A stretch of DNA of 64,000 bases from Octopus vulgaris (lineage: Eukaryota), in contig OX597834.1 of assembly GCA_951406725.2 (NCBI GenBank), positions 15,686,001 to 15,750,000 of the forward strand, in the 5' to 3' direction. The position numbers and the translations under genes are program-made. Every line of letters starts with the position of its first letter. Position 1 is the first letter of the stretch. This document shows, one piece after another, positions 15,171 to 15,434 of the stretch. The notes under the pieces were generated by a model. The model was not told the DNA's origin. It ran no database searches and saw only the letters and a program-made list of their open reading frames with translations.

Positions 15171-15176
<6 letters not shown>

Positions 15177-15434
15177 TTTATTTAAAAGCAGTAGAAATAT
15201 AACAAAAGCTGTTACTCAGAGTTTCACGTTCCCGTTCGTCGGACAGTTTTAACATAGTTAAAGGATACACCTTTGTTCAATTTTAACAAAACTGTCCCAC
15301 GAACGGGAACGTGAAACTCTGAGTAACAGCTTTTGTTATATTTCTGCTGCTTCTAAATAAAGCATATTACTCTACATCTGGTATTTGAGTACTCTTTTTT
15401 TATACCTAGTTTCACATTCATGTGCTTACTCCGG
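15171..15434 (+). mobile_element. Family E fold-back element (80-bp inverted arms plus tail) with two hammerhead motifs
   Basis: Arms 15171-15250 and 15288-15367. Minus-strand motif CTGT-CCGACGA-ACG-GGAA-CGT-GAAAC-TCTGA-GTA-ACAG. Confidence 0.82.

Follow-up and report, generated by a model that had tools for sequence, protein, structure and literature searches.

How does a single element come to carry two hammerhead ribozyme motifs that face each other across an inverted repeat? The question is raised by two fold-back elements in a 64,000-nt stretch of the Octopus vulgaris genome (GCA_951406725.2, contig OX597834.1, positions 15,686,001 to 15,750,000; the whole stretch is called the window), which a preliminary description had read as an inverted arm, a centre of 37 or 1 nt, a forward arm and a shared tail, each palindrome being generated from its own template during integration, as in the inverted pseudo-LTRs of Penelope elements. 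Both fold-backs are located as described (Table 1). The arms of copy 1 (15171-15250 and 15288-15367) are 80 nt long, 96% complementary and spaced by 37 nt, while those of copy 2 meet at a 1-nt centre, the A at 17000; in both copies a tail of 71-72 nt follows, and then the common end TTACTCCGG. An ungapped inverted-repeat search of copy 2 recovers the outer 53 nt only (16922-16974/17025-17077), because of a 1-nt deletion. On the + strand the predicted hairpins of the two copies reach -138.7 and -132.1 kcal/mol, and the masking of the ribozyme by such double-stranded RNA, suggested earlier, is a folding prediction.

Both window copies are ordinary, decayed and dead insertions. The hammerhead motif claimed for every arm is closely approached in all four and matched exactly in the inverted arm of copy 1 only, the other three carrying lesions: CCCACGA (G5C) in the forward arm of copy 1, ACAT for ACAG in helix I of the inverted arm of copy 2, and TTGT with a 3-nt loop II in its forward arm. 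G5 is important in the hammerhead core, and the forward motif of copy 1, in which the cut site would follow 15325, is predicted to be inactive.

Table 1. Features of the two fold-back insertions, in window positions
Feature	Positions	Strand	Remarks
Copy 1, entire fold-back insertion	15175..15434	+	Old subfamily A; flanked by (TA)n and TATG repeats
Copy 1, inverted arm	15175..15250	-	Ends at the short start site, without tail
Copy 1, type I hammerhead motif	15209..15246	-	CCGACGA (U4C) core, equal to the subfamily consensus
Copy 1, 20-nt filler	15255..15274	-	Matches element body ~43-62 nt upstream of helix I; likely a template jump
Copy 1, forward hammerhead motif	15292..15329	+	G5C mutation
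Copy 1, 72-nt tail	15363..15434	+	Spans short to long start site; bulged hairpin ~15368-15391
Copy 2, entire fold-back insertion	16922..17152	+	Subfamily B, within (TA)n
Copy 2, hammerhead motif	16951..16988	-	U4C core, helix I end pair broken
Copy 2, palindromic arm junction	16989..17011	.	At the stop hot spot
Copy 2, hammerhead motif	17012..17048	+	U4C core, 1-nt deletion in loop II
Copy 2, 71-nt tail	17082..17152	+	Bulged hairpin, long end

The proposed Penelope-type origin was borne out by the parent element. Searching the genome (2.8 Gb, 227 contigs) with copy 1 yielded 1,728 candidates, 40 of which were scored; the 30 loci examined are located for the most part in (TA)n and share the common end, with centres that differ. 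Walking upstream from longer copies traced the parent, in which ~1.1 kb of non-coding DNA separates the region of the copies from an upstream ORF. One locus (L123) is a tandem with a unit of 3,430 nt; its hammerheads lie at 1261, 4691 and 8121, and it has two open frames of 726 codons, a hammerhead motif lying upstream of each ORF, in the pseudo-LTR. Insertions end at one of two fixed start sites, 71 nt apart in the element RNA, that bound the tail; the hammerhead lies 37 nt before the short end and ~108 nt before the long end, and the ATG 67 nt after the long end.

The protein of a further locus (L107; 711 residues from its Met, a single ORF with YRDD) has 915 homologues among 7,996 scored candidates. 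Its structure model built from 118 aligned rows (pLDDT 92.7, against 34 for a single-sequence model) finds its best fold match in telomerase reverse transcriptase (TERT 3du5, E 4e-9), and Pfam and PDB sequence searches with the protein gave no match. DKG is changed to DKT (SDKT at 112; T in 107/118 rows), the cysteines of a CxCX5C linker (C562, C564, C570) are invariant in 118/118 rows, and CCHH is missing. A putative C-terminal GIY-YIG endonuclease is recognized by motif, with VVY...YTG at 581-600 free of any intervening Cys and a CxH at the C-terminus, as in the Hydra rows of Fig. S2 of PMC8557442; the matches of the fold search were polymerases, and the nuclease was not among them. By far the commonest flank is TATATA, found after 86 long and 87 short ends (220 distinct ends). 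According to Craig et al. (2021, PMC8557442), the Hydra clade is marked by DKT, CxCX5C, the lack of CCHH and a TA target, and by these sequence marks the parent belongs to it. Each window element is thus a head-to-head insertion, truncated on its 5' side, of a Penelope-like element (PLE) of the Hydra clade; the family is new, while its clade is known and its arrangement published. The element is also present in sequencing-run contigs of four organisms, its ends being followed by TA in three; no relatives were found in metagenome contigs, hence no outgroup DNA. At one further locus (L031, ~4360-5054) the inverted arm runs into different sequence where the hammerhead end is expected, possibly a template switch or a chimera.

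A 34-nt hammerhead pattern has 7,313 matches in the genome and its reversed control none, and the pattern is therefore not due to chance. Rfam gave no match at gathering score in the window and no hammerhead match, the sub-threshold hits being microRNA-hairpin and other families; a twister-P3 match (E 0.81) was taken as chance. The motifs are accordingly candidate hammerheads, identified by the core pattern and by likeness to published Hydra-clade motifs. The hammerhead fold of the monomer lies 1.0-4.7 kcal/mol above the minimum, and the duplex of the helix III palindrome is predicted at -7.4 to -7.9.

Sorting 219 arms by non-core sites (9 unassigned) gives four subfamilies: A (68 arms, CCGACGA, 3.8% divergent from the consensus; some of them were sampled for their resemblance to copy 1), B (13 arms, CCGACGA; its age of 1.05% was set aside, with 13 arms and 13 sites removed), C (51 arms, mostly CCGATGA, 1.8%) and D (78 arms, 1.2%). 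D conforms to the core CUGANGA / GAAA / NUH, with CTGATGA in 76/78 arms, and A-C carry U4C; among the full-length open frames with a linked hammerhead that were examined, all are D. The unpaired base at the centre of helix III is T in both arms of copy 1 and A in both arms of copy 2, as had been observed; rather than being private to each palindrome, it is a subfamily marker, copy 1 belonging to A and copy 2 to B. U4C as the family core is real and heritable, but it is found in only ~46% of arms (3,359/7,313 exact-pattern matches) and does not mark the youngest subfamily. Since CpG decay goes from C to T, U4C is not decay and is inherited from source elements. In quick ORF trees with homologues as the root, D falls within the U4C copies (supports 95-97), and six published novel Hydra motif rows are all U4 (CTGA), so that gain followed by loss is the simplest reading; in an AU test, U4C copies as one clade were not rejected (p 0.22). 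Reversion to the canonical core in D is likely, and the age order favours it. In D, helix II is closed by an A-A opposition, and several published Hydra motifs likewise have a mismatch at this place.

The ends obey a nearly strict rule: 97/98 opposed pairs, counted over distinct insertions pooled from L160-L355, combine one long and one short end, in end-pair samples that overlap and come mostly from contig C1. Among the first 100 hammerhead matches on C1, 45/45 opposed pairs are long plus short, with 18 and 18 unpaired ends. End-anchored coordinates, taken without the hammerhead requirement, give 53 long-plus-short pairs and one apparent short-plus-short; apparent short-plus-short pairs proved to be long arms with a point change, or partial tails. 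In the sole long-plus-long pair (L316, 1503-1711), a full arm adjoins an inverted piece made up of tail alone. Genome-wide there are 5,154+456 long and 4,579+1,467 short ends, the inequality in the old subfamily (456 vs 1,467) being read with patterns that divide subfamilies differently, the long-end one containing CpG. Of 30 end-anchored long ends, 21 have an opposed end within 1.5 kb and 9 do not, and 8 have a whole hammerhead in both arms. When the 39 nt after each end are folded, both give a bulged hairpin, starting 5 nt and 7 nt, respectively, beyond the end (in D, z is -2.1 and -2.0; for the second hairpin, -4.7 in an A copy and -1.2 in window copy 1). Target-site duplications are unreadable within (TA)n. 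An ordinary DNA-transposon MITE, which the preliminary description had set against its own reading, was rejected: centres and spans vary, one end is a tail, and terminal inverted repeats at both ends are lacking. In correction of that description, the outer ends are fixed, at the two start sites.

Fold-backs of this kind are probably made by asymmetric two-strand priming from the two start sites at a cut in the TA repeat. The PLE enzyme, positioned by the bulged hairpin immediately 3' of each start site, would cut the repeat and prime both DNA strands, one strand per start site; the two cDNAs would grow toward each other and be joined via a few complementary bases, often after running off the RNA 5' end, which would lie at an initiator-like sequence 12-13 nt before helix I. 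The template would be mostly uncut RNA. Run-off just upstream of the hammerhead, followed by joining, would leave a whole hammerhead in each arm, and the opposed hammerheads would be a by-product. A transcript from -13 reading through a tandem would contain two sets of start sites and yield a mix of run-off and long arms.

Among young end-anchored arms, 24/60 have their upstream limit at -14..0 relative to helix I, where the rate at other positions predicts 2.0; in the old subfamily 15/46 end at -13..0 and the interval from -14 to -164 is empty, in a set of 46 of 60 arms from which 13 best matching B and one mimic were dropped. In the set selected for resemblance to copy 1, 21 old arms terminate at -15..-29. 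The forward arm of copy 1 reaches -18 and its filler derives from -62..-43, and its template therefore extended past -13. At the predicted cut site there is no stop peak (0/60 arms, about 1 expected), which accords with uncut RNA as the in vitro template of a related element (PMC11167929). Two of 220 arms begin there (L188 and L201, tailed arms of 176-nt copies); they start within the self-complementarity of helix I, and their cause is ambiguous. An initiator-like heptamer, by the initiator consensus, places the hot-spot edge on its A in both lineages, against a background of 15 per 1,083 nt. Given the spacing of the Penelope downstream element, the positions of interest are +28 to +35. There A matches 6/8 letters of RGACGTGY (PMC2377424; counted by hand), and D does not match.

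The stop could instead reflect RNA or cDNA structure: two-strand priming would still hold, but the cDNA would fold on itself past an extended helix I, with no transcription start at -13. The base of this predicted helix falls exactly at -13 in C and D, and isolated arms stop at the hot spot too. In A, however, the helix ends at -8, yet 6/15 hot-spot arms reach -11 or -13 (some of these extra bases may be chance overlap); 0/46 A arms stop from -14 to -164, and the heptamer sits at the edge in both lineages. A structural hot spot is possible but less likely.

The lengths of the two arms bear on whether one was copied from the other. The junction could be resolved in 55/63 pairs, with 36 overlaps, 8 blunt joints and 11 fillers. 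Both arms have equal reach in 30/55; the tailed arm extends more than 10 nt further upstream in 8/55, and the tail-less arm in 17/55. In the latter neither arm can have been copied from the other, and both were therefore copied from RNA. As to the claim that each palindrome had its own template, arms of one insertion do share a source lineage: the helix III centre is concordant in 55/59 pairs, and a polymorphic site in D agrees within 20/20. Distances within insertions are lower than between them in C (12 pairs, p 0.0016) and D (20 pairs, p 0.0002), but not in A (18 pairs, p 0.21), where later decay may hide the shared source. In one pair (L276) the arms differ at subfamily-type sites.

Self-priming, in which a single strand folds back at a palindrome and serves as its own template, has been put forward for the Penelope elements of rotifers (Arkhipova et al. 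2013, PMC3846280) and fits the pairs of equal reach, the shared source of the arms and the 13/63 pairs that span 225-232 nt around a CTAG palindrome. It may account for some equal-arm cases; it cannot yield the 17 pairs with a longer tail-less arm and leaves the stop at the short site unexplained, so that as a general account it is improbable. Nor is the recurrent size likely to denote a non-autonomous unit: a MITE or retrozyme-like hairpin of ~229 nt would match the modal span (229 nt) and the same junction in several copies, but this junction recurs in B, C and D (that of copy 2 is also present in the subfamily D copy L216) with arms matching each subfamily, spans range from 89 to >4,000 nt, and one end is a tail instead of an inverted repeat, which makes this alternative very improbable. 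Non-LTR retrozymes, described as tandem non-coding units with a hammerhead in each (10.64898/2026.07.22.740005), were rejected as well, the window copies being inverted pairs and the tandems found here ORF-bearing units.

Old genomic copies carry changes at 16/608 non-CpG core sites and 55/1,558 flank sites; decay is roughly neutral, core and flank alike, with no clear sign of selection, and no function of the hairpins is therefore indicated. That they are host-selected regulatory double-stranded RNAs or ribozyme switches, as their very stable predicted folds on both strands might suggest, is scarcely to be expected, given these similar rates of loss and the lesions in three of the four window motifs. 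Under asymmetric two-strand priming, the hammerhead would matter in source elements alone, acting as a dimer via its palindromic helix III, and U4C would have persisted in source elements from A to C, with a probable reversion in D. A fuller reading, possible and put forward tentatively, is that one complex primes two cDNAs at hairpin-marked sites on opposite strands, that both run off at a transcription start upstream of the hammerhead and are joined, and that a weakened U4C ribozyme supported thousands of insertions before it reverted as helix II lost its closing pair.

The family shares with the Hydra clade (Craig et al. 2021, PMC8557442; 10.1101/2021.04.23.441226) DKT, CxCX5C, the lack of CCHH, a C-terminal endonuclease, the TA target and a terminal repeat that holds a hammerhead. 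Hydra-2_aMil has an identical helix I (ctgt/acag) and an identical helix III, actc-N-gagt (PMC8557442). It differs in a unit of 3.4 kb with a ~1.1-kb 3' non-coding part, published Hydra elements being generally <3 kb, and in its 71-nt tail and U4C core, the six novel Hydra rows all having CTGA (PMC8557442). Hydra-1_Obim, compared by eye, has a different hammerhead and N-terminus, so that the present family is another one. Head-to-head arms, a single tail and a junction palindrome are shared with the inverted pseudo-LTRs of endonuclease-bearing PLEs, whose self-priming model does not cover longer tail-less arms and for which the passages compared contain no tally of how ends pair (PMC3846280), and a tail usually on one end is likewise described in PMC8557442.

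In Poseidon_Ac (Frangieh et al. 2024, PMC11167929), two internal start sites also bound the tail, and in vitro both strands are cut and extended at an AT-rich target with uncut RNA as the main substrate. No strand difference in start site was seen in that system, in contrast with one of each per insertion here; its hammerhead overlaps the ORF start, whereas here the ATG lies 67 nt past the long end; and, unlike in Poseidon_Ac, past its two ends the element continues with CATAT and TGTAA, a partial match to the TA target (PMC11167929). Metazoan PLE hammerheads (Cervera and De la Pena 2014, PMC4209133) are also type I, with a palindromic helix III implying dimers, and dual motifs lie 100-700 bp apart on opposite strands; the core variant described there is U3-A8, not U4C. 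In a viroid hammerhead, U4C is reported to lower activity in vitro without abolishing it, and to suffice in vivo (cited in Perreault et al. 2011, PMC3088659); there it is one variant, as opposed to thousands of genomic copies in three successive subfamilies here. The literature searched contained no mention of either U4C in PLEs or the long-plus-short rule, the supplements of PMC4209133 and PMC11167929 lying outside that search.

The inverted-arm-plus-tail layout and opposed hammerheads are already published, and the added value is quantitative: the end rule, arm lengths that vary independently, a sharp edge to the stops, and the series of cores. How inverted ends arise in PLEs and what their hammerheads do are open questions (PMC8557442, PMC11167929), for which this family provides copies by the thousand, young ORFs of full length, ends that follow an almost strict rule, a sharp stop site and four natural ribozyme versions for comparison. 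If true, asymmetric double priming would account through a single mechanism for inverted pseudo-LTRs, tails on one side and opposed hammerheads, and the U4C copies would be a natural series in which to ask whether PLEs need cleavage at all.

Other repeats surround the two fold-backs. Just left of copy 1 (14760-15120), the end of another repeat occurs twice in direct orientation, as copies of ~200 nt that each run into (TA)n, and similar sequence adjoins two further loci (L008 and L010); different repeat families may pile into the same TA runs. Between the fold-backs (16216-16570), two adjoining copies of a very abundant SINE-like repeat show very high depth. Elsewhere in the window are a 409-codon open frame (9206-10432, + strand) unrelated to the fold-back element, which we take from its motifs to be a LINE-type reverse transcriptase, and a 1.2-kb (AAT)n-type microsatellite (56300-57550).
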